Assembly (NCBI GenBank): GCA_963720265.1
Contig: CAVRET010000002.1
Location: 328,704-392,703, forward strand
Source of the DNA: an uncultured bacterium
Lineage (GTDB): Bacteria > Patescibacteriota > Saccharimonadia > UBA4664
Reading direction: 5' to 3'
DNA: 64,000 nucleotides
Shown: positions 21,000 to 60,736 of the stretch, one piece after another
Numbering within the stretch: the first letter of the stretch is position 1
How the letters are laid out: every line of letters starts with the position of its first letter
Notes under the pieces: generated by a model
Seen by the model: the letters and a program-made list of their open reading frames with translations, nothing else
Database searches by the model: none
Told to the model about the DNA's origin: nothing
Made by a program: the position numbers and the translations under genes

Positions 21000-21413
21000 T
21001 TATACGCCTATGGTTATGCACTCCCGGCACACGCCGCTGATCTCAATCTGGTGGCTCCGCGGCTCAATATCATGCAACCTGGCTAGCGCCTCCAGTCGCT
21101 CCTCAAGCTCCGGATCTTCCACGCTCACCGACCGGCCGCACCGCACACACGAAATATGGTGGTGATGGCTATCAAACGTGTCCACCAGCTCAACCATCTT
21201 GCGCCCGCCCATAATGACGTCCTGAATCACCCCGAGTTTGCGAAATAACGTCAGGGTCCGATAAATACTGGCTCGGTCCATACCTTTGTTATCAGCCACG
21301 ATCGCGCTCAAACTTGCCGGGTCATTGGCTTGCATATAGCGAAACAACTGGGTGCGCGGGCTGGTCACACTATAGCCCTGTTCCTGCAAATGGCGCTTAA
21401 AAGCTTCTAGCAT
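21000..21413 (-). CDS. Fur-family metalloregulator (Zur-like by context)
   Basis: 'HHHHISCVRCGRSVSVEDPELEERLE' Fur C-terminal metal-site motif; divergent from metal ABC importer. Confidence 0.75.
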   Translation of the reverse strand: MLEAFKRHLQEQGYSVTSPRTQLFRYMQANDPASLSAIVADNKGMDRASIYRTLTLFRKLGVIQDVIMGGRKMVELVDTFDSHHHHISCVRCGRSVSVEDPELEERLEALARLHDIEPRSHQIEISGVCRECITIGV

Positions 21414-21430
21414 GATGCAATTATAGTAAG

Positions 21431-21451
21431 AATTGCAACAAATTTGCAATT
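21431..21451. promoter_or_regulatory. Perfect 8-5-8 palindrome AATTGCAA-CAAAT-TTGCAATT in the divergent regulator/importer intergenic region; candidate Fur/Zur operator
   Basis: Read directly from sequence; position between regulator start (21413) and SBP start (21483). Confidence 0.45.
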
Positions 21452-21482: not shown

Positions 21483-22424
21483 ATGAACTCACGCACAGCC
21501 CCCAAGCGACAGCCCCGCGACCGCGCCGTTTGGCTGGTCGGGCTGTTGCTCGCACTAATAATCCTATCTGTGCTGGCGCTCCTCATCATCGCGCACCGTT
21601 CGTCCCAGGCCACCTCGCGTCAGGTTCACGTTGTGGCAGCCGAAAACTTCTGGGGTAACATAGCCGCGCAAATCGGTGGCAGTAAAGTCATGGTTACATC
21701 GATCATCACCAATCCCAATGCCGACCCCCACCTCTACGAATCCGACGCTCACGATGCCGCTTCCGTTGCTACTGCCAACGTTGTCGTCGAAAACGGCCTT
21801 GGCTACGATGATTTTATGAGCAAACTACTGGCCGCCTCACCCAATAGCCGGCGCACGGTTGTCTCGGCCCAACAAGTACTGGGCGTAACCGGCGCCGACC
21901 CAAACCCGCACCTCTGGTACGACACTCCCCGCGTCCCCACCGTGGCTGCGGCCATTGAACAAGCGCTCGCCGCCAAAGATCCCGCCGACGCCGACTATTT
22001 CCGTGCCAACCTTACCACCTTTGACCAATCATTAACGCCGATTCTAAACATCATTGCCGAGATTAAAACCCGGTACCCCAATACTCCCGTCGCCTACACC
22101 GAGCGCGTACCCGGCTATCTCTTGAACGCCGCCGGCTTAAGCGTCAAAACCCCGCCCGGCTTTGCCTCGGCCGTTGAGGACGGCACCGACCCTAGCCCGT
22201 CCGACACCCTAGCTTTCGACTCGCTTATCACTTCACACAGCATTAAAGTATTACTATACAACGCGCAAACGATCTCCAGTGTTACCCAACAGATCAGCGA
22301 TCTGGCGACCAGCAACCATATTCCGGTTGTGCCCGTTACCGAAACGATGCCGGCTGGCGTTCCAACCTATCAGGCCTGGCAGTTAGACCAAGCCAAAGCA
22401 TTATTAACCGCCCTCGGAGGCTAA
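21483..22424 (+). CDS. Metal ABC transporter substrate-binding protein (ZnuA/TroA cluster-9 family)
   Basis: 'AENFWGNIAAQIGG...TNPNADPHLYE' motif, His-rich metal site, signal anchor. Confidence 0.8.
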   Translation: MNSRTAPKRQPRDRAVWLVGLLLALIILSVLALLIIAHRSSQATSRQVHVVAAENFWGNIAAQIGGSKVMVTSIITNPNADPHLYESDAHDAASVATANVVVENGLGYDDFMSKLLAASPNSRRTVVSAQQVLGVTGADPNPHLWYDTPRVPTVAAAIEQALAAKDPADADYFRANLTTFDQSLTPILNIIAEIKTRYPNTPVAYTERVPGYLLNAAGLSVKTPPGFASAVEDGTDPSPSDTLAFDSLITSHSIKVLLYNAQTISSVTQQISDLATSNHIPVVPVTETMPAGVPTYQAWQLDQAKALLTALGG

Positions 22425-23275
22425 TGGCAACCAAGGTCCGCGCCGCCCAAGTCGCAGCCGTAACCATCAACACGGCCGCCCTCAGTCTCGGCGGCCGTGA
22501 GCTTTGGCATGACCTCAATCTAACAGTCGGCCGCGGCGAATTTCTGGCTGTACTAGGCCCCAATGGGTCGGGCAAAACGAGTCTACTCCGCGCTCTGCTT
22601 GGGCTGGGCGAGCTTACCAAAGGCAGTATTGAGATTTTTGGTCAGGCTCCGCGCCAGGCGCGCAATCGTATCGGCTATGTGCCACAGCAAAAGGGTTTTG
22701 ACCCAGATCTGCCTATCCGCGGCCGTGACCTTGTGCATTTCGGTCTCGACGGGAACCGCTATGGTTTCGGCATTCACGGCCGCCGCACCGCCGCACGAGT
22801 CGACGAGGCCATTGCCGCAGTTGGCGCCACCGCTTTTGCTGATGCACCCATCGGCCTCCTGTCCGGTGGCGAGCAGCAACGTCTGCGCATTGCCCAGGCC
22901 CTGCTCACCGATCCCGACCTGCTGCTATGCGATGAGCCACTCCTCTCACTCGACCTCTCGCACCAGCAAACCATAAGCACACTCATCGACGAGCGCCGCC
23001 GTCAGGCCGGCACGGCGGTGGTCTTCGTCACCCACGACATCAACCCTATTTTGCCCATGGTCGACCGAGTGCTCTACCTTGTAGGCAATCGCTGGGCCGT
23101 TGGCGAGCCGGAAGTCGTGCTCACAAGCGAACGTCTAACTGATCTCTATGCCGCCCCGGTCGACGTTATGCGTGTGCGCGGCCGCATTGTGGTCGTGGGC
23201 GCCGGCGAGCCGGAGCTTACCGGCGGAGAGCGGCATCATCATGACCAAACTCACAAAGCCGAGGAGACAGCCTGA
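22424..23275 (+). CDS. Metal ABC transporter ATP-binding protein (ZnuC-like)
   Basis: Walker A 'GPNGSGKTS', 'LSGGEQQRLRIA', 'LLLCDEP'. Confidence 0.85.
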   Translation: MATKVRAAQVAAVTINTAALSLGGRELWHDLNLTVGRGEFLAVLGPNGSGKTSLLRALLGLGELTKGSIEIFGQAPRQARNRIGYVPQQKGFDPDLPIRGRDLVHFGLDGNRYGFGIHGRRTAARVDEAIAAVGATAFADAPIGLLSGGEQQRLRIAQALLTDPDLLLCDEPLLSLDLSHQQTISTLIDERRRQAGTAVVFVTHDINPILPMVDRVLYLVGNRWAVGEPEVVLTSERLTDLYAAPVDVMRVRGRIVVVGAGEPELTGGERHHHDQTHKAEETA

Positions 23276-24105
23276 TGGGTCTGGGGTTTTATCTAAATCA
23301 GGCTTTCGTTCTGCACTCCCTGCTAGCCGCCGGCCTAGTCGCAATTAGTTGCGGCCTGATCGGGCCGTTTGTGATCAGTCGCGGCATGGCGTTTGCGGTC
23401 CATGGCACAAGTGAACTGGCCTTCACCGGCGCTGCCGCAGGCCTGCTGGTGGACGGCAATCCCATCGCCGGCGCCCTAGCCGGTGCCCTCATCTTCGCCA
23501 CTATCATCGGTCTACTCGGCGTGCGCCAACGAGAACGCGATTCGTCAATTGGTGTGATCCTGGCCTTTGGTCTTGGCCTGGGCGTGTTGTTGCTGAGCTT
23601 CTACCACGGCTTCGCCTCCGAAGCCACAAACATCCTGTTTGGCAATATCTTCGGCGTCAGCTTAGGCCAGCTGGTACTGCTGCTTGCCATTAGCGTTATG
23701 GTAATCATTGCCATGGGCCTGCTCTATCGGCCACTCTTGTTTTCCTCCATTGATCCCGAAGTGGCAGTTGCCAAAGGCGTGCCAGTGCGGGGCTTGGGTA
23801 TCGTGTTCTTGCTCATCCTGGCGCTCACTGTTACCGCCGCGGCCCAAATTGTGGGCACGCTGCTCGTCTTAAGCCTGGCTATCACACCGGCCGCCGCAGC
23901 GCAGCGGCTCAGTGCCCGGCCCGGGGTCGTCACCGCGCTGTCAATAATATTTGCACTCATCGCCAGCCTCGGCGGCCTCATCGCCAGCCTGGCCGTGGCC
24001 GGTGGCACCGTCAAGCCCAGTGTTTTCATTACCTCCATCAGTTTTGCCATCTATATCATCGCCCGATTAGCCGGCCCGCTGTTTCGCGAGCGCCGGCCCG
24101 ATTAA
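23275..24105 (+). CDS. Metal ABC transporter permease (ZnuB-like)
   Basis: 8 TM, ABC-3 family architecture, immediately after ATPase. Confidence 0.8.
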   Translation: MGLGFYLNQAFVLHSLLAAGLVAISCGLIGPFVISRGMAFAVHGTSELAFTGAAAGLLVDGNPIAGALAGALIFATIIGLLGVRQRERDSSIGVILAFGLGLGVLLLSFYHGFASEATNILFGNIFGVSLGQLVLLLAISVMVIIAMGLLYRPLLFSSIDPEVAVAKGVPVRGLGIVFLLILALTVTAAAQIVGTLLVLSLAITPAAAAQRLSARPGVVTALSIIFALIASLGGLIASLAVAGGTVKPSVFITSISFAIYIIARLAGPLFRERRPD

Positions 24106-27085: not shown

Positions 27086-27284
27086 GACCGCCAGTCTATC
27101 GTTACCAGGCAATCTAGTAAATGTACAAGAAAAATATCTGATTACTCACAGAATCCATGCACTAAGTATACCAACAGCTCTGTTTAAATTAGTGCAAGGC
27201 CGACCCCTAAAAGCGAAACCAAAAAGAAATTGTAAAGAGGGCGGGGCCATCAGGCCCCGCCCATGTAACGAGCAACCTTGACTG

Positions 27285-27668
27285 TCAGCAGTCCGGTGTG
27301 GCCTGCAGGCCGATCTGTTCGGCGAGGGTCACGTTCAGATCCTCAGACGTGAGGGCACAGATCGGCGCGCAGCAGTTGTACAGGCCGAAGGCTGCGCCGA
27401 AGTGTCTGGTGAGTACGCCACGGGCGATGTCGGTACCGAGAAGCCGGCTGAGCTGACCGCCGAGTGGCGAGTGCGGGTCTTCTCGTTGCAGCAGACGCTG
27501 TCCACTGGCGCGAACCTTGGCCACCAGCTCGGCGATGTACGCGAAGCCGAGGGGCAGGTCCTGCTCGAACGCTTCCACGAACGCCGCGTCGAGTGCACCC
27601 TGGTCGGCTGTATCAGGGTCGGTAATGCCACGACGTGCGAGGATAGCGCCGAGGGACTGATATGACAT
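27285..27668 (-). CDS. Hypothetical protein with 'CCAPIC' cysteine cluster, downstream of CooC-like ATPase
   Basis: ORF with ordinary composition; Cys-x-x-x-Cys cluster; start chosen at ATG 27668. Confidence 0.3.
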   Translation of the reverse strand: MSYQSLGAILARRGITDPDTADQGALDAAFVEAFEQDLPLGFAYIAELVAKVRASGQRLLQREDPHSPLGGQLSRLLGTDIARGVLTRHFGAAFGLYNCCAPICALTSEDLNVTLAEQIGLQATPDC

Positions 27669-27735
27669 GACGGGCCTTTCTAACTCGTGCTGGCCGTGTT
27701 GCCAGCTAGCGACCATTCAGCTGCATGGCCCTTAG

Positions 27736-28704
27736 CTAATAACCGGTCTGATGAACAAGTTCAGGAGTGAGCTTGAAATCCGGGTCGATCTGCTTGGTTA
27801 GATCAGCACCGGCGGCTTCATTGGCCCAACTGGCAGCATTGCGGCGGTGGAACGCCAGAGCCTGGGTATAGAACTTGTCCCAATCTCTGGGCATTGCGTC
27901 GAGTGTGCGTTTAATAACCTTGAGCGCCTCGAGGTTAAAGGGCTCCAGTTCGGCAAAATCACGATGTTGGCCCTTCTCTAATGAACGGACGTAATTTGAG
28001 CGCTCCAACCAGGTGAGCAAGTCATCGCCGACGTGCTGGCGCAAGAATTCAACATCTTCAACGGATTCGACCTTGTTTCCAACTACTGCGAGCTTTACAT
28101 GATGGTCTTTGGCGTAGTGTTTGTATTGCCTGTAAACGCCGACGCCCTTTAAGGTCGGCTCAGCTACGAGCACGGTAAGGTCAAACTTGGTGAACATGCC
28201 GGAGGCAAATGAGTCAGCCCCGGCTGTCATATCGACGATGATATATTCGTTTGCACCGTCGATGAGGTGGTTCAGGATAAGCTCGACGGCTCCCACTTTG
28301 GAGTGATAGCACTTAACACCGAGGTCCGACTCATTGAATGGACCGGTAGCGAGCAGTCGCACGCCGTTGATCCGCTTCTCGAAATGGTCCCAAATCGGGT
28401 TCTGCTCGCCAAGCATCAGGAGATTTGAGCCTCGTCCAGGCGGCGTGGTTTTAGCCATTTGCTCGTTCGAGACAATGCGAGAATTGCTCCCCCGCAGGTA
28501 CTCTTTGACCCGGTCAATCTCAATACCAAGCGGTGGGATACCGGCCGCAGCTTCGACCGATCCTCCAAGCGCCTGTGCCAGGTGCTGGTTAATGTCCGCG
28601 TCGATCGCCATAACGGAAAGTTTCTTACTGGCTAGGTATCGAGCAAATAGCGCGGAGGTGGTGGTTTTGCCGCTGCCGCCTTTGCCAACAAATGCAATTC
28701 TCAT
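27736..28704 (-). CDS. CooC/MinD-type P-loop NTPase (ParA/Mrp superfamily), putative metal-centre maturation ATPase
   Basis: 'MRIAFVGKGGSGKTTTSALFARYL...VMAIDADINQHLAQALG' deviant Walker A and CooC-like 'AIDAD' motif; ~80-aa C-terminal extension. Confidence 0.65.
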   Translation of the reverse strand: MRIAFVGKGGSGKTTTSALFARYLASKKLSVMAIDADINQHLAQALGGSVEAAAGIPPLGIEIDRVKEYLRGSNSRIVSNEQMAKTTPPGRGSNLLMLGEQNPIWDHFEKRINGVRLLATGPFNESDLGVKCYHSKVGAVELILNHLIDGANEYIIVDMTAGADSFASGMFTKFDLTVLVAEPTLKGVGVYRQYKHYAKDHHVKLAVVGNKVESVEDVEFLRQHVGDDLLTWLERSNYVRSLEKGQHRDFAELEPFNLEALKVIKRTLDAMPRDWDKFYTQALAFHRRNAASWANEAAGADLTKQIDPDFKLTPELVHQTGY

Positions 28705-28736
28705 GGACGTTAGCCTACTGCCCACGATGCAATGAA

Positions 28737-28751
28737 TGCAACTTAGTTGCA
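28737..28751. promoter_or_regulatory. Perfect 7-1-7 palindrome TGCAACT-T-AGTTGCA in the divergent intergenic region; candidate Fur-paralog operator, shares TTGCA core with the 21431 site
   Basis: Read directly; TATAAT at 28770-28775 just downstream. Confidence 0.45.
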
Positions 28752-28783
28752 AGTGCTACTCAATATGCATATAATTGCAGGCC

Positions 28784-29209
28784 ATGGATAAAGAAAGACT
28801 ATTTAGAGAGGCACTTAATAATGCGAACGCACGGATCAGTGCCCAGCGCCTGATTATTTTTCGTGCGCTCCTGCGCAACACGCCCGTATCGACCCTGAAA
28901 CTGGTGGAGCTGGCCGGTAAAAACGGGATTGACCGCACCACCACCTACCGGACATTAACGCTGTTCCGTAAGCTCGGAGTTGTACGTGATGTGGTGGCTG
29001 GTGGCAAGCGGTTAGTTGAACTAAGCGACGACTATCTGGCACACCATCACCACTTTTGGTGCCGTAAATGCGGCAAATTAACCGATTTTGATAGCTTGGT
29101 TGTTGAGTCCGGCTTGCGTGAAGCCGTTAAGGCCATTGGCGGCCAGATGATGTCCCATCACGTCGAGATTAGCGGCATCTGCGCGGATTGCCTGCAGAAA
29201 GCCAGGTAG
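28784..29209 (+). CDS. Fur-family metalloregulator, second paralog (Nur/Zur/PerR-like, specificity unknown)
   Basis: 'HHHHFWCRKCGKLTDFDSLVVESGLREAVKAIGGQMMSHHVEISGICADCLQ' Fur C-terminal CxxC motifs. Confidence 0.7.
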   Translation: MDKERLFREALNNANARISAQRLIIFRALLRNTPVSTLKLVELAGKNGIDRTTTYRTLTLFRKLGVVRDVVAGGKRLVELSDDYLAHHHHFWCRKCGKLTDFDSLVVESGLREAVKAIGGQMMSHHVEISGICADCLQKAR

Positions 29210-29240: not shown

Positions 29241-29588
29241 TCACACTCTCGAATGCGGAAAGAATTTCGCCACCAGCGTATAGGTGGTAAAAGAATTAAC
29301 GACCTCTTCAAGGTCAAGACGAACATGCGCCGGGATCACTGCAAAATATTTGGTTTTTGCATGTACCCTTTGGTACTCTTCCGTCGACATTAGGATCGTT
29401 TCATGGCACGCTTCATCGTCACACTCACAGTGAAAAGCCATGTTTGAATGATCTTGAAGGCGTATGTCCTTTCTGGACTGTACTACCTTTTCCATGCGTT
29501 CTTCATTAAGTATCTTGGACCCAAATTCATTGAGGATGCGCTTTTCTATAGCCACCTTCAATGCTTCCGTAGGCGATTTATCATTCAT
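29241..29588 (-). CDS. Hypothetical protein with 'HCECDDEACHE' Cys/His cluster, AT-rich (likely acquired)
   Basis: ORF in a local GC trough adjacent to tRNA-Asn. Confidence 0.25.
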   Translation of the reverse strand: MNDKSPTEALKVAIEKRILNEFGSKILNEERMEKVVQSRKDIRLQDHSNMAFHCECDDEACHETILMSTEEYQRVHAKTKYFAVIPAHVRLDLEEVVNSFTTYTLVAKFFPHSRV

Positions 29589-30131
29589 ACCAGCCTCTAC
29601 ATTGGCTAAGGGTTGGCTTAACCAGAGCATTATTACTCTGGAATGAGGGCTAGACCGAGCAGCGGCTCAAAGCTGTGAAGACCTAGTCGACATGATGCTG
29701 ACCTTCACCATCATGTTTCTAGCTGATTGCATTATGTCACCTTTGTATAGTGCTTGCCGAAAGAAAATAGAACGACATCAAATTCATCGCAACAATTGCA
29801 TACGCTAAGCAAAGTTTCTGGACAACTCAACGATAAGCACCATGAGTTTGACGTTAGAACTATAATTTGCCGTTCAAGTACTTACTCGCAACACTCAATG
29901 CGAACGAAGGCAGAATAATAAACACAGTAATAATTAGGAGCTTCATCAGCATTTTGTTGAGGTCAGAGCCGTCTTTATCAACGCCGTTAGCAGGAGATGT
30001 CAGCACCGATAATATTCCGATAATGCCGAAAGCGATCGAAGCGTAGACAAATATTCGTGTAGCTAGCTTTTGCATATGGTAAGTATATCAAAAAGGGCCT
30101 GCGTAAGGCTCTTTTTTAAACATAAGTTCTT

Positions 30132-30206
30132 TGGCTCCGGAGGTCGGGCTCGAACCGACGACCCAACGGTTAACAGCCGTTTGCTCTACCACTGAGCTAC
30201 TCCGGA
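30132..30206 (-). tRNA. tRNA-Asn (anticodon GTT), CCA encoded
   Basis: Cloverleaf folded by hand: acceptor TCCGGAG/CTCCGGA, anticodon loop CTGTTAA, T-loop GGTTCGAGC. Confidence 0.85.
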
Positions 30207-30439
30207 ATACGAAGGCGATTATACGCGAAATCTGGGATACAGGTCAATTGGCAGCTCGCCTGGATTTTAGTCCTTAGAATTTTGCACAATATCAGATTGA
30301 GGCTACAAAAAGGATAAAACCAAACTGTCATCACGTAAAACTGAGATTTTGCTGGCCAACCCTTGGAAAAACAACCATGTACGAGACAATCAAATTAGCC
30401 CATATCTAAGGAATAAATCACGTTACAAGGAGGTTTGTT

Positions 30440-30994
30440 ATGAGTCCAGCCAACAGCCAGCTCAGAGAATTGTGGTGGCTCCTTTTGATTCGCGGTATCG
30501 CGCTCATATTATTCGGCGTGGTAGCAGTACTGTGGCCCGGTCTCACACTGGTTGGCTTGGCAGCCGCCTTTGCCATATTCTGGCTCATCACTGGGGTGAT
30601 CAACATCATTCAAGGAATAATGGGTATTGGGCGCCGCAGTCTGTGGTTTTTAACGCTCATCATTGGCCTAGCCGAACTTGGGCTGGCTGTCTATTTGCTC
30701 AAGCACCAACTGGTACTCGCAACCTTCATTGCGGTGATCGGCCTGTCGCTCATCATCTTGGGCATCATGGAGATTGTGGCGGCCTTTGAGCCGGGTGAGG
30801 ACGCGGGCAGCCGTTTCCTGGCCATTATTGGTGCGGCTCTAGCGCTCATTGCCGGCTTCGTGACGTTGCGTGAGCCGCTCTCCAGTGGTTTAGCGTTTAC
30901 CTGGGTCATCGGATTGTGGGCCTTGGTAGCTGGCGCACTGCAAGTTGCCGCTTGTTTGAGTCTGCACAGCAAGCTTGAGGCTGCCAGAGTCTAA
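30440..30994 (+). CDS. HdeD-family (DUF308) acid-resistance membrane protein
   Basis: Repeated DUF308-like TM pairs 'WWLLLIRGIALILFGVVAVLWPG'; RBS AAGGAGG at 30426. Confidence 0.6.
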   Translation: MSPANSQLRELWWLLLIRGIALILFGVVAVLWPGLTLVGLAAAFAIFWLITGVINIIQGIMGIGRRSLWFLTLIIGLAELGLAVYLLKHQLVLATFIAVIGLSLIILGIMEIVAAFEPGEDAGSRFLAIIGAALALIAGFVTLREPLSSGLAFTWVIGLWALVAGALQVAACLSLHSKLEAARV

Positions 30995-35470: not shown

Positions 35471-36061
35471 CTAATTCAGCGCCGTCAGCCGTTCGTATGC
35501 AATCGGCAATTCGGTAAAGCCGTCGTCGCCGCTAAAGTGCCCCATGTTATGCAGGAGTATCCCTTCTGCTCCCAACTCCTGCTTGAAGGTGGTCAAGTTT
35601 TCCACCGCCACCCACTTGTCGTTATCAGACTGAATAGCAACGAACTTGTGGCAACGGCGCTTGATCTCGCCCCACTGCAACGGAGTTGTAAAAAAGCCCG
35701 ACAATTCGCCGGAATATCCCGGCGCCGTCAGATCTGATGCAAATCCGGCCACCAGCATTGCTCCTCCAATTGCTTCTGCGCCACGCAATGTCTCTAAATA
35801 GCGCAAAATCGTGACACACCCCAAGCTATGGCCCACCAAATAAGTGTCCAGGTCCGGCCGGCCCACAATTTCTGAGAGCTCTTGAACCCACGTTCCCATC
35901 ACCGGTTGCATCGTATCCGGCATGGCCGGTACCGCAACGGCCCAGCCGTCTTGCTTCAATTTGCGCTTCAGCCACGGTAGCCATCCGGCCTCCGGCGTTC
36001 CCTCCCAACCGTGTACAATAACCGCTCGTTTCATGGCTTTAAGCATAGCAAGCCGCCCCAA
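35471..36061 (-). CDS. Alpha/beta hydrolase, RBBP9/YdeN-like serine esterase (start ambiguous among three Met)
   Basis: 'VIVHGWEG','LVGHSLGC' nucleophile elbow. Confidence 0.55.
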   Translation of the reverse strand: MGRLAMLKAMKRAVIVHGWEGTPEAGWLPWLKRKLKQDGWAVAVPAMPDTMQPVMGTWVQELSEIVGRPDLDTYLVGHSLGCVTILRYLETLRGAEAIGGAMLVAGFASDLTAPGYSGELSGFFTTPLQWGEIKRRCHKFVAIQSDNDKWVAVENLTTFKQELGAEGILLHNMGHFSGDDGFTELPIAYERLTALN

Positions 36062-52066: not shown

Positions 52067-53404
52067 ATGAAGCGCAGAGGCTTAGCCGTTTGGCGGCAAA
52101 TTTGGTATCTTTTGTATGCCTTAGGCATTGTCGCCATCGGCCTGTTTTGGTGGCATGCCTCCGGCCATCGCACCACTGCCGCGACGCCGTCAATTGAGGT
52201 CGCCATCGGCAACCTCACCGGCCTGGTTGGCACCTATGCCATTCTGTGGCAGCTGGTGTTGCTCAGCCGGCTCGTGCCACTCGAATCAGCCTTCGGTCTC
52301 GAACAACTCACCTGGCTGCATAAATGGAACGGCTACCTCGCGCTCACGCTCATTCTCGCGCACACGCTATTTCTCACCTTAGGCTTTGCCGCCCCCGACC
52401 ACTTGTCGTTCGTCGGCCAATTCATGAGCTTTCTGCTGACATGGCAGGACGTGCTCAAAGCCACGGTTGGCACCGTGCTGCTCATTGTGGTAGTGTGCAT
52501 CTCAATCGGCATTGTCCGGCGCGGGTTTAAATATGAGACCTGGTACTACACCCACTTGCTTACCTATCTGGCAATTTTGCTTGCCTTTAGTCATCAATTT
52601 TCCGTTGGTCTCGATTTCGAAAATGCCCCGGCCTTTCGCCTCTACTGGTATGCTCTCTATGTGCTGGCTGTTGGCGCCATCGGCTGGTTTCGCTTTGTGG
52701 TGCCACTGTGGCAGCTGTGGTACTTTCGCCTGCGGGTGGAACGCATTGAGCCGGCCAACGCATCTGCCAACTCCATCTACATTACTGGCCGCCATCTCGA
52801 CAAATTTCACTTTGAACCCGGCCAATTCTTGATCTGGCGCTTTTTAGATAAAGATCATTGGTGGCAGGCTCACCCGTTCTCAATCTCAATGGCGCCCAAT
52901 GGCCAGCACCTCAGGCTCACGGCCAAAGCCGTCGGCGACTTCACGCGCACACTGCCAAACATTAAGCCGGGCACCCTTATCGCCACTGACGGACCGCACG
53001 GTAACTTCACGCTTAGCCGCGCGGGCGGTAACAAGCTATTGTTCATCGCCGGCGGCATCGGCATCACACCCATCCGCTCCATGCTCGAGCACCTTCCCAA
53101 ACAGGTGGACGCCGTTGTCTTATACGCCGTCCGCACGAAAGGGGAGTTTGCATTTACCAATGAACTAGACAAGCTCACCACCAGGCCCGGCGTCAGTCTG
53201 CATTATGTTATCAGCGATGAAAAAGTACCGGGCATGACCCACGGCCTGGTCACAACCAAAGTACTGCATGCTCTCGTTCCCGAACTCGCCGACCGCGAAG
53301 TCTTACTCTGTGGGCCGCCGGCAATGATGGATCATGTTACCAAACACCTTATCGCCGTCGGCGTGCCCCACCGCCACATTCACACCGAGCGCTTTGCCTA
53401 TTAA
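52067..53404 (+). CDS. Ferric-reductase/NOX-like flavocytochrome (6-TM heme domain + FAD + NAD(P)H binding)
   Basis: His-containing TM pairs, 'HPFSIS' FAD motif, 'LLFIAGGIGITPIRSML' NAD-binding. Confidence 0.7.
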   Translation: MKRRGLAVWRQIWYLLYALGIVAIGLFWWHASGHRTTAATPSIEVAIGNLTGLVGTYAILWQLVLLSRLVPLESAFGLEQLTWLHKWNGYLALTLILAHTLFLTLGFAAPDHLSFVGQFMSFLLTWQDVLKATVGTVLLIVVVCISIGIVRRGFKYETWYYTHLLTYLAILLAFSHQFSVGLDFENAPAFRLYWYALYVLAVGAIGWFRFVVPLWQLWYFRLRVERIEPANASANSIYITGRHLDKFHFEPGQFLIWRFLDKDHWWQAHPFSISMAPNGQHLRLTAKAVGDFTRTLPNIKPGTLIATDGPHGNFTLSRAGGNKLLFIAGGIGITPIRSMLEHLPKQVDAVVLYAVRTKGEFAFTNELDKLTTRPGVSLHYVISDEKVPGMTHGLVTTKVLHALVPELADREVLLCGPPAMMDHVTKHLIAVGVPHRHIHTERFAY

Positions 53405-60048: not shown

Positions 60049-60124
60049 TGGTAGGCCCGCCTGGATTCGAACCAGGGACCAACACCTTATAAGAGTGTCG
60101 CTCTAACCGCTGAGCTACGGGCCC
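60049..60124 (-). tRNA. tRNA-Ile with anticodon TAT (UAU), CCA encoded
   Basis: Hand-folded cloverleaf: acceptor GGGCCCG/CGGGCCT, anticodon arm ACACT-CTTATAA-GGTGT, T-loop GGTTCGAATCC. Confidence 0.75.
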
Positions 60125-60659: not shown

Positions 60660-60736
60660 CGCGGGGTGGAGCAGTTCGGTAGCTCGCTGGGCTCATAACC
60701 CAGAGGTCGCAGGTTCAAATCCTGCCCCCGCTACCA
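60660..60736 (+). tRNA. Initiator tRNA-Met (CAT)
   Basis: Near-identical to canonical bacterial tRNA-fMet: 5' CGCGGGG with unpaired C1, GGG/CCC anticodon stem, anticodon loop CTCATAA. Confidence 0.85.

Follow-up and report, generated by a model that had tools for sequence, protein, structure and literature searches.

The question raised by the locus described here is why a gene for an ATPase related to CooC, the protein that inserts Ni into the C-cluster of carbon monoxide dehydrogenase (CODH), is divergent from a gene for a Fur-family regulator. The locus lies in a 64 kb stretch of contig CAVRET010000002.1 from an uncultured bacterium of the Saccharimonadia (the whole stretch is called the window, and window coordinates are used throughout), and it consists of the regulator Fur2, the ATPase and a small Cys-containing protein. 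A further Fur-family regulator of the window, Fur1, is encoded next to znuABC. A sequence-only reading of this DNA had proposed that regulator, ATPase and small protein form a metal-trafficking module for Ni or Zn under control of the Fur paralogue, and our comparative data point in the same direction, as members of the ATPase/small-protein family recur in other phyla together with Zur, znuABC and Zur boxes. The explanation that we prefer, and to which we give slightly better than even chances, is that the locus is a Zur-type-repressed, nucleotide-dependent metallochaperone module with a role in metal starvation, most likely for zinc. Taken for itself, zinc is the probable metal, nickel or cobalt would account for a minor share of the likelihood, and other signals make up the remainder.

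Both regulator genes and their neighbours were found as the sequence-only reading had placed them. Fur1 is divergent from the ZnuABC-like importer with a palindrome, AATTGCAA-N5-TTGCAATT, in between, and Fur2 is divergent from a two-gene minus-strand operon for the ATPase and the small protein, with the perfect palindrome TGCAACT-T-AGTTGCA at 28737-28751 in the 79 bp intergenic gap (Table 1). A separate gene call on the source contig, a record of 1.1 Mb, gave identical products of 141, 322 and 127 amino acids (aa). The small-protein gene follows the ATPase gene after 67 bases, and its ATG is preceded by the Shine-Dalgarno-like sequence AGAAAGG. The operon probably ends with a hairpin shortly after the small-protein gene; its GC-rich stem of 10 bp is present in the centroid structure (z = -2.3), and the consensus scanner did not call a terminator at 27240-27263. 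The GC content changes along the locus, being 0.62-0.66 in the small-protein gene versus 0.50-0.55 in the ATPase gene and 0.45-0.47 in the flanks, which might stem from amino-acid composition or from a separate origin.

The two palindromes had been said to share a TTGCA(A) core, which is correct, and to have only a half-site in common, which is too little: in a common register, TTGCAACAAATTTGCAA in box 1 and ATGCAACTTAGTTGCAA in box 2, they agree over a full 17-bp 6-5-6 layout with one mismatch, and the joint architecture is (T/A)TGCAA-N5-TTGCAA. An operator common to both loci can be ascribed to the recognition helix of the regulators, since the stretch YRTLTLFRKLGV is identical in Fur1 and Fur2. 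The exact pattern TGCAA-N5-TTGCA occurs in 2 copies per 64 kb versus 0.09 expected (none of 100 shuffles reached 2), and both copies lie in divergent intergenic regions adjoining a Fur-family gene. The enrichment is confined to this exact form, as the pattern with 2-3 mismatches is not enriched in the window. A third box at 35675, with 2 mismatches, was rejected as an operator, being located inside a serine-hydrolase gene and probably due to chance. The expectation that the palindromes be rare and intergenic was thus borne out, and they are also conserved in relatives while the flanking DNA diverges; in locus L002, with 87% identity in the ATPase, the box is kept and the sequence between box and ATPase start has diverged.

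As expected of a Fur-family operator, box 2 overlaps the predicted promoter of its own locus. The consensus scanner, run over a 2-kb region, gave one sigma-70-type promoter, reading into Fur2, of which the -35 hexamer is the right arm of box 2, and the Fur2 ATG is situated 9 nt past the -10 hexamer. On the other strand, the left arm of box 2 (TTGCAT) precedes TAGGCT by 18 nt; TAGGCT in turn ends 7 nt ahead of the ATG of the ATPase, and these two elements, read by eye, are the predicted ATPase promoter. With its arms being the -35 hexamers of both divergent promoters, one dimer bound to box 2 would occlude both, and both divergent mRNAs would be leaderless or nearly so if the predicted promoters hold. 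An extra (A)TGCAAT half-site is found 4-10 bp upstream of each operator (21413-21422 and 28726-28732, e.g. gATGCAATtatagtaagAATTGCAA... and gATGCAATgaATGCAACTT...), and at the znu locus it contributes to another inverted repeat, TGATGCAATT/AATTGCAACA (90% complementarity), that overlaps the operator. These half-sites may allow binding of a second dimer or of an oligomer.

The ATPase matches only the generic PF01656 CbiA/MinD/ParA model in Pfam. Its Pfam and NCBIfam matches are to generic models (MinD, ParA, BcsQ, ArsA), cover about 40 N-terminal residues in the Walker A region, and are far below the family cut-offs, as for instance 25 bits versus a cut-off of 180 for the NCBIfam ParA model. 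Such matches are what could be expected if the protein were a ParA/MinD-type positioning or partition ATPase, or an Mrp/NBP35 Fe-S carrier, and stood beside a Fur gene by coincidence. We regard this possibility as very improbable and largely refuted. The clearly best full-length match among PDB sequences is CooC1 of Carboxydothermus hydrogenoformans (3KJE, E=9e-15, 23% identity), followed by ArsA (1.8e-7). The AlphaFold2 model of the ATPase (predicted local distance difference test, pLDDT, 90.6) was compared with the PDB by Foldseek, and here also CooC1 is the best match, with E=2.7e-12 and a template modelling (TM) score of 0.74 normalised on the target, while MinD, Cfd1, NifH, FleN, ATPase-type HypB and Soj follow at about 1e-8, approximately 4 logs worse. 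No ParB or parS was found nearby, the ATPase family has C-x-H and no CxxC Fe-S bridging motif, and the linkage to Fur, Zur, Znu and operators recurs in independent lineages. The ATPase is therefore CooC-like and not ParA or Mrp, as the sequence-only reading had anticipated. Membership in COG0523 was likewise rejected, as the ATPase sequence has no PF02492 match and no CxCC.

The family of this ATPase is large. A word-indexed search returned 6969 matches with 58-68% identity in Actinomycetota and Ktedonobacteria, and an exhaustive search gave 262 clusters at 50% identity with E<=1e-30. Invariant in the family are K8 and K13 of the deviant Walker A motif, DADINQH, KTTPPG, C132-x-H134, DMTAG and GNK; the signature K8 of the Walker A motif (VGK8GGSGKTT) is found in 120 of the 121 ungapped representatives. 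The pair C112-Y-C114 of CooC1 is aligned with C132-Y-H134 of the ATPase, and C-[YFH]-H is present in all 126 full-length representatives, down to about 30% identity. The C-x-C of CooC1 and the C-P-H of UreG chelate metal at the dimer interface (PMC3792862). Further features in common with CooC1 (3KJE-3KJI) are the deviant Walker A with Lys8, a Switch I D-x-D, a Walker B DM(T/G)AG and an Asn-only remnant of G4 (GNK), besides the Cys-x-(Cys/His) pair where the metal site of the dimer interface lies. The ATPase differs from CooC, and from the CooC paralogue AcsF, in the C-x-H pair, in the additional invariant KTTPPG, in a C-terminal helical extension of about 70 aa which is absent from CooC, and in having a PF20704 protein as partner and not CooT or CooJ. 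It is never beside genes for CODH or acetyl-CoA synthase (ACS) in the loci examined, with no linkage to cooS, acsA or acsB either among the window genes scanned or in the recurrent neighbour clusters of 86 loci, and is linked to Zur/Znu regulation instead. The same scan of window genes found no urease, hydrogenase or ParB gene. Because C-x-H replaces C-x-C and the linkage to CODH/ACS fails, the alignments and the model indicate a protein that resembles CooC in its fold and in where its putative metal site lies, without being a true CooC; its family is distinct and conserved.

The small protein encoded downstream reaches 38.8 bits with PF20704 (gathering score 27) and 38.5 bits with the NCBIfam SCO5389 equivalog model (NF040488), which is below the cut-off of 75, and is accordingly placed in a divergent subgroup of the PF20704/SCO5389 family. 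This family is known but uncharacterised; for SCO5389, detection at the protein level has been reported in Streptomyces tsukubaensis (PMC7602649). In 35 locus-derived and 47 database homologues the residues N98-C99, C/H100 and the last-residue Cys (C127) are invariant, and the NC[HC] motif and the C-terminal Cys are common to the window protein and the actinobacterial members. The Cys cluster 'CCAPIC' to which attention had been drawn is thus present, but its third Cys is lineage-specific and not conserved among homologues. In the AlphaFold2 model (pLDDT 95) N-terminal helices are followed by a beta-alpha-alpha-beta-beta-alpha unit comprising residues 57-127, and the NCC motif is placed in a beta-hairpin. 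Foldseek gave no significant PDB match for this model (best E=1.0, TM <=0.37), and the weak top matches include the KH proteins KhpB/EloR and YlmH.

The order of secondary structure elements and these weak matches, together with the Pfam name of the family (KH_NucS_shadow), are in line with a different function, in which the operon would be a member of a Zur regulon that does not transfer metal and would act on nucleic acids or the ribosome in zinc starvation (ribosome remodelling or NucS-linked repair), with the Cys and His residues being structural or redox-active. Ribosomal-protein paralogues are typical of Zur regulons (PMC6103462), and the SCO5389 protein changed 2-fold in a redox-stress proteome. 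We nevertheless find such a function unlikely, since the fold matches are insignificant and the position of the KH GXXG loop is degenerate in the family (GTDI or ASDA). Moreover, metal handling is the simpler explanation for an invariant C-x-H at the metal position of CooC combined with three conserved Cys/His residues in the partner, and in Patescibacteria-like loci the small-protein gene shares its transcription unit with genes for membrane proteins and ZnuA.

The closest relatives of the small protein are found in Patescibacteria-type assemblies (Doudnabacteria, Paceibacterota, 'Patescibacteria group') and occur in two layouts. In the first, Fur is divergent from the small protein, after which come a 126-aa membrane protein whose tail is rich in His and then YibE/F or ZnuA. 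In the second, the ATPase, in some cases divergent from Fur, is followed by the small protein, and this order of ATPase and small protein is present in 8 of the 24 small-protein-centred metagenome loci. TGCAA-N5-TTGCA, with at most 1 mismatch, was found in the Fur-proximal intergenic region of L002, L003, L020, L087 (two copies), L088, L090, L093, L094, L095, L098 and L105, and the same box is located upstream of a type-B znuA (see below) in the window, L090 and L100. From this recurrence the TGCAA box appears to define a small regulon, consisting of a metal ABC importer and the small Cys protein, to which some genomes add the ATPase, YibE/F and the 126-aa membrane protein. The 126-aa protein of the ATPase-less Patescibacteria-like loci (L088 5921-7452; L090 6477-8261; L093-L098, L105) has 3-4 transmembrane helices and the tail HPVDSDHKH, and the YibE/F-family membrane protein or ZnuA comes next, all behind the TGCAA box; this suggests a membrane-associated step in those loci.

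The ATPase was also analysed in 80 loci from a genome scan and in six loci from exact look-ups, and hallmarks were counted in the 53 loci that are neither Streptomyces nor duplicates. In 32 loci the gene for the small protein comes immediately after the ATPase gene, and in 3 it is upstream and close by; among the 53 counted loci it is directly downstream or close in 33. A Fur-family gene is found within 6 kb in 12/53, znuA or znuB within 6 kb in 11/53, and within 300 bp upstream of the ATPase a Zur-type box in 18/53 and a TGCAA-type box in 4/53, and at least one of these hallmarks is present in 30/53. Fur and/or znuABC occur within 6 kb of the ATPase in Ktedonobacteria, Micromonosporaceae, Kitasatospora, Streptantibioticus and Actinocrinis. 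Examples are Ktedonobacter robiniae and K. racemifer, where zur-znuA is divergent from the ATPase and small-protein genes, Dactylosporangium, where the pair is situated between two zur/znu sets, and L086, with znuCBA divergent from ATPase, small protein and zur. The neighbouring regulators are true Zur orthologues (E=2e-52 for L008 versus Streptomyces coelicolor Zur, ScZur, 3MWM) and have an RRCS..HHHH motif. The actinobacterial Zur-box core TGAAAATNATTTTCA, with up to 3 mismatches, gave 19 hits in the 300 bp preceding the ATPase start versus 0.29 expected from the remainder of the 1 Mb, and Zur-type boxes are approximately 60-fold enriched upstream of the actinobacterial ATPase orthologues. 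This core agrees with the S. coelicolor consensus tGaNNatSatNNtCa and the actinobacterial consensus taaTGaNAANNNTTNtCANta (PMC5472717), and also with the Zur boxes of Mycobacterium smegmatis (PMC7174638). Four further Zur-box hits lie at +1 of the ATPase genes in Streptomyces and were discarded as a product of the conserved MKIAFV codons.

In the intergenic regions of Ktedonobacteria no Zur-like palindrome was found, only unrelated ones; those upstream of the ATPase are AGGAGAGTATACCCTCCT and ATGATAC-N3-GTATCAT (L006 4838-4855; L010 5956-5972), neither of them being Zur- or Nur-like. A gene for a luciferase-like (LLM-class) monooxygenase comes right after the ATPase/small-protein pair in 13 loci of Micromonosporaceae, Nonomuraea and Pseudonocardiaceae (e.g. 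L077 7425-8459), and its product may be a third operon member or a client.

In the 31 Streptomyces loci the ATPase gene stands alone, in a conserved tad/ssd ... acsA neighbourhood. A Zur chromatin immunoprecipitation (ChIP-chip) study of S. coelicolor lists in its Supplementary Table 1 a peak (peak_035, intensity 3.85) which is 24 bp upstream of SCO3560, named 'ATP-binding protein', and 79 bp from the divergent SCO3559; in the same table znuA has 4.38, zitB 4.24 and rpmG/rpmB 3.69. SCO3560 is probably the Streptomyces ATPase orthologue. The Streptomyces orthologues are all named 'ATP-binding protein', and have a divergent intergenic region of about 105-115 bp and an acetyl-CoA synthetase gene three genes downstream; in S. 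coelicolor this acsA gene is presumably SCO3563. The full-text literature returned nothing on SCO3560 or SCO3563, and the clusters looked up had no S. coelicolor entry. The divergent upstream open reading frame of the Streptomyces loci has no Pfam or NCBIfam match. These loci (L021-L083) have a conserved element, GAGTGGTCTTCTTCAC, at about -70 and another, GGTGAACATGAAGATCGC, across the ATPase start codon; within the latter, the stretch TGAACATGAAGATCG matches the ScZur motif at 9 of its 11 specified positions and is a possible site for peak_035.

Fur1 and Fur2 are 36-38% identical and are mutually the closest relatives among the Fur proteins compared, which suggests a lineage-specific duplication with possible cross-regulation. 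Fur2 has HHHH and two CxxC motifs. In an alignment with ScZur (28-30% identity) only three single-residue gaps are needed from Tyr52 to the last CxxC. Invariant in this alignment are the structural Cys4 site (C90, C93, C130, C133), H85-87 and H122, and Fur1 and Fur2 also retain E105; both thus have the Cys4 site and the D-site ligands of Zur (ScZur H84/H86/E105/H122). The binding protein ZnuA matches PF01297 (E=1.6e-47) and is, from an alignment of the two types, a divergent 'type B' form with TE...VTET motifs as opposed to type A. The product of znuC has a His-rich tail, GGERHHHDQTHKAEETA, at its end.

Several of our results weigh against a zinc-responsive module. The ATPase and SCO5389-type genes of Streptomyces are not linked, SCO5389 is absent from the S. 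coelicolor Zur ChIP list, and SCO3560 was assigned by name and context rather than by sequence. The M-site Cys that marks zinc sensors (ScZur C79, MtZur C76) is replaced by Ser/Asp in Fur2 and by Asp in Fur1, and neither has the RRCS that the actinobacterial neighbour regulators carry. In the PDB similarity ranking Zur, Fur and PerR score alike for Fur1 and Fur2. The best NCBIfam match of the window binding protein is AztC with 82 bits versus a cut-off of 350, which does not indicate a metal. CooC and UreG are nickel proteins. Finally, the footprint-derived Nur box of S. coelicolor is tTGCaa-N5-ttGCAA (PMC2691836), and both TTGCAACAAATTTGCAA and ATGCAACTTAGTTGCAA have this 6-5-6 form. A box that precedes cbiM by 22 bp, TTGCGA-N5-TTGCAA, is similarly Nur-box-like; it is found in L037, L052 and L067 (Actinomadura, Spirillospora; Thermomonosporaceae), where the ATPase gene is located about 95 bp downstream of a cbiM-PDGLE-cbiQ-cbiO energy-coupling factor (ECF) transporter for Ni/Co (L037 3243-5907) and where no small-protein gene is nearby.

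The identical form of the box, the cbiM loci, the relationship to CooC1 as the closest characterised protein, itself a Ni-inserting ATPase, and the resemblance of C-x-H to the Ni-binding C-P-H of UreG could all be accounted for by a nickel or cobalt module, in which Fur1 and Fur2 would be Nur-like and the ATPase and its partner would deliver Ni to a Ni enzyme in the manner of CooC, HypB and UreG. We consider this unlikely, though a serious rival. In the window, L090 and L100 the box precedes a binding protein of cluster A-I (Zn/Mn/Fe-type), not Nik or Cbi genes, and in the PDB search Nur (3EYY) is only the 9th match of Fur2 (E=2.5e-7) and the 19th of Fur1. Of the Ni-site residues of Nur (His70, His72, His126), the first two presumably correspond to Asp/Val in Fur1 and Fur2. 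The actinobacterial neighbours are clear Zur orthologues with TGAAA-type Zur boxes, the association with Ni/Co transport is limited to one family (3 of 53 loci), and no Ni enzyme was found among the window genes scanned. The Zur, znu and box evidence from Actinomycetota and Ktedonobacter all points to zinc, so that on the comparative evidence zinc is more likely than nickel.

Iron, manganese or peroxide would be other signals for the operon to answer, if Fur2 were of the Fur, Mur or PerR type. Asp or Ser at the position of Zur Cys79 is also found in the regulatory sites of Fur and PerR, and the top PDB matches of Fur2 are Campylobacter jejuni Fur and Bacillus subtilis PerR. At its third ligand position the type-B binding protein carries Glu, as in Mn/Fe binders (PsaA, MntC). 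Such a signal is decidedly unlikely in our view. Fur1 and Fur2 appear to lack the N-terminal His ligand of Fur and PerR, type-B binding proteins 40-46% identical to the window protein stand behind Zur-type boxes in Actinomycetota (L045, L086), and the partner regulators there are Zur orthologues.

We return to the metal-starvation module, for which the following mechanism may be envisaged. Fur2 would be a lineage-specific duplicate of the Zur-like Fur1. When loaded with metal, Fur2, and possibly Fur1, would bind ATGCAA-N5-TTGCAA and block both divergent promoters, and Fur2 would in this way repress itself together with the ATPase/small-protein operon. Scarcity of the metal would lead to derepression and to synthesis of the ATPase and the small protein. 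All subsequent steps are proposed by analogy. The ATPase would be a dimerising enzyme of the CooC type in which two protomers sandwich ATP, as in CooC1, UreG and HypB, and the two C-x-H motifs would form a Cys2His2 metal site at the dimer interface. The small protein, with its KH-like topology and its C99/C100/C127 triad, might be donor or acceptor of the metal, and hydrolysis of ATP would release the metal to client proteins. If the metal is zinc, the pair would be the counterpart, in the MinD/CooC branch, of the Zur-regulated COG0523 GTPases.

For P-loop ATPase metallochaperones Ni(II) is the sole known cargo, with CooC as the example (2022 NTPase-metallochaperone review, PMC9164220), and zinc starvation has been connected with nucleotide-dependent chaperones solely in the case of the COG0523 GTPases, whose clients are largely unknown (PMC11672702). 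COG0523 is also all that reviews of bacterial metal trafficking list on the zinc side (PMC11672702, PMC6103462). The COG0523 G3E GTPases (YciC/ZagA, ZigA, Zng1) resemble the ATPase in being putative metallochaperones that hydrolyse nucleotides, are repressed by Zur and are encoded beside znuABC or zur, whereas the ATPase belongs to the deviant-Walker-A branch of MinD/CooC and has C-x-H in place of CxCC and no CobW C-terminal domain. UreG and HypB also use a short Cys/His motif to chelate metal across a nucleotide-dependent dimer, but are G3E GTPases that work with UreE/F/H or HypA and are tied to urease and hydrogenase. A gene pair of similar design is that of ArsA and ArsD, in which an ATPase gene is accompanied by a gene for a vicinal-Cys protein of about 120 aa, and ArsD hands As(III) to ArsA. 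The window ATPase is however single-domain and has no ArsB or Acr3 pump, and the PDB fold search detected no solved ArsD-like relative of the small protein. As to the regulators, Fur1 and Fur2 have the operator form of Nur and the metal-site residues of ScZur mentioned above, and are specific orthologues of neither; the actinobacterial Zur box is of TGAAA type and the window box of TGCAA type.

In the full-text literature we found no description of this ATPase family in connection with Zur, and its only trace is the unremarked SCO3560 line in the ChIP-chip supplementary table, given that SCO3560 is probably a member. This suggests that the module is an undescribed SIMIBI-class metallochaperone under Fur-family control. 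We would also propose, more tentatively, that the C-x-H ATPase and the PF20704 protein constitute a second class of zinc metallochaperone, independent of COG0523 and the first to be ATP-dependent and of the MinD branch, with Zur-type repressors as its regulators in Actinomycetota, Ktedonobacteria and Patescibacteria, and that in this small genome the duplicated Zur with its unchanged recognition helix serves as a separate regulatory input. If this is true, a conserved CooC-type C-x-H ATPase belongs to the Zur regulons of at least three phyla, with a dedicated Cys partner of unmatched predicted fold, and ATP-driven metal delivery extends beyond nickel. It would open a second entry point into the allocation of zinc under scarcity, and a tractable one, as Streptomyces, Micromonospora and Ktedonobacter are cultivable. 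Two large families, the SCO3560-like 'ATP-binding protein' and the SCO5389-like 'hypothetical protein', would obtain a first functional context, and very small Patescibacteria-like genomes would be seen to retain a duplicated metal sensor for the module.

Table 1. Genes and sequence elements of the Fur1/znu and Fur2/ATPase loci in window coordinates
Feature	Coordinates	Strand	Remarks
Fur1	21000..21413	-	First Fur-family regulator, 137 aa, divergent from znuABC; exact 137-aa product on record
Operator box 1	21431..21451		AATTGCAACAAATTTGCAATT; core TTGCAA-N5-TTGCAA at 21433-21449; between Fur1 and znuA
znuABC	21483..24105	+	znuA 21483-22424, znuC 22424-23275, znuB 23275-24105; cluster A-I metal ABC importer
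Terminator	27240..27263	-	Probable intrinsic terminator of the ATPase/small-protein operon; GGGCGGGGCC-UGAU-GGCCCCGCCC, then U-rich tract
Small Cys protein	27285..27668	-	127 aa; NCCAPIC; PF20704 (KH_NucS_shadow)/SCO5389 family
ATPase	27736..28704	-	CooC-like, deviant Walker A, 322 aa; starts MRIAFVGKGGSGKTT; contains AIDAD
Operator box 2	28736..28752		ATGCAACTTAGTTGCAA; readable as 7-1-7 or 6-5-6; central in the 79-bp divergent intergenic region
Fur2 promoter	28747..28775	+	Predicted sigma-70 promoter, TTGCAA-17 nt-TATAAT, 10 of 12 matches
Fur2	28784..29209	+	Second Fur-family regulator, 141 aa; PF01475 E=5.5e-15

The neighbours of the ATPase gene in the window comprise, besides Fur and the PF20704 protein, a B3_4-domain protein and a GNAT acetyltransferase. 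Convergent with Fur2 is an open reading frame of 129 aa (115 aa in the gene call; 29241-29630, minus strand) without a Pfam match, which carries HCECDDEACH, a possible small metal-binding site. The window has three tRNA genes, at 30135-30206 (minus strand), 60052-60124 (minus strand) and 60660-60733 (plus strand), the first of which is located about 900 bp past Fur2, on the border of a stretch of low GC (0.42-0.45, approximately 29300-30500). Another metal-related gene, about 23 kb off at 52067-53404 (plus strand), encodes a ferric-reductase-like transmembrane flavoprotein (PF01794, PF08022, PF00175).

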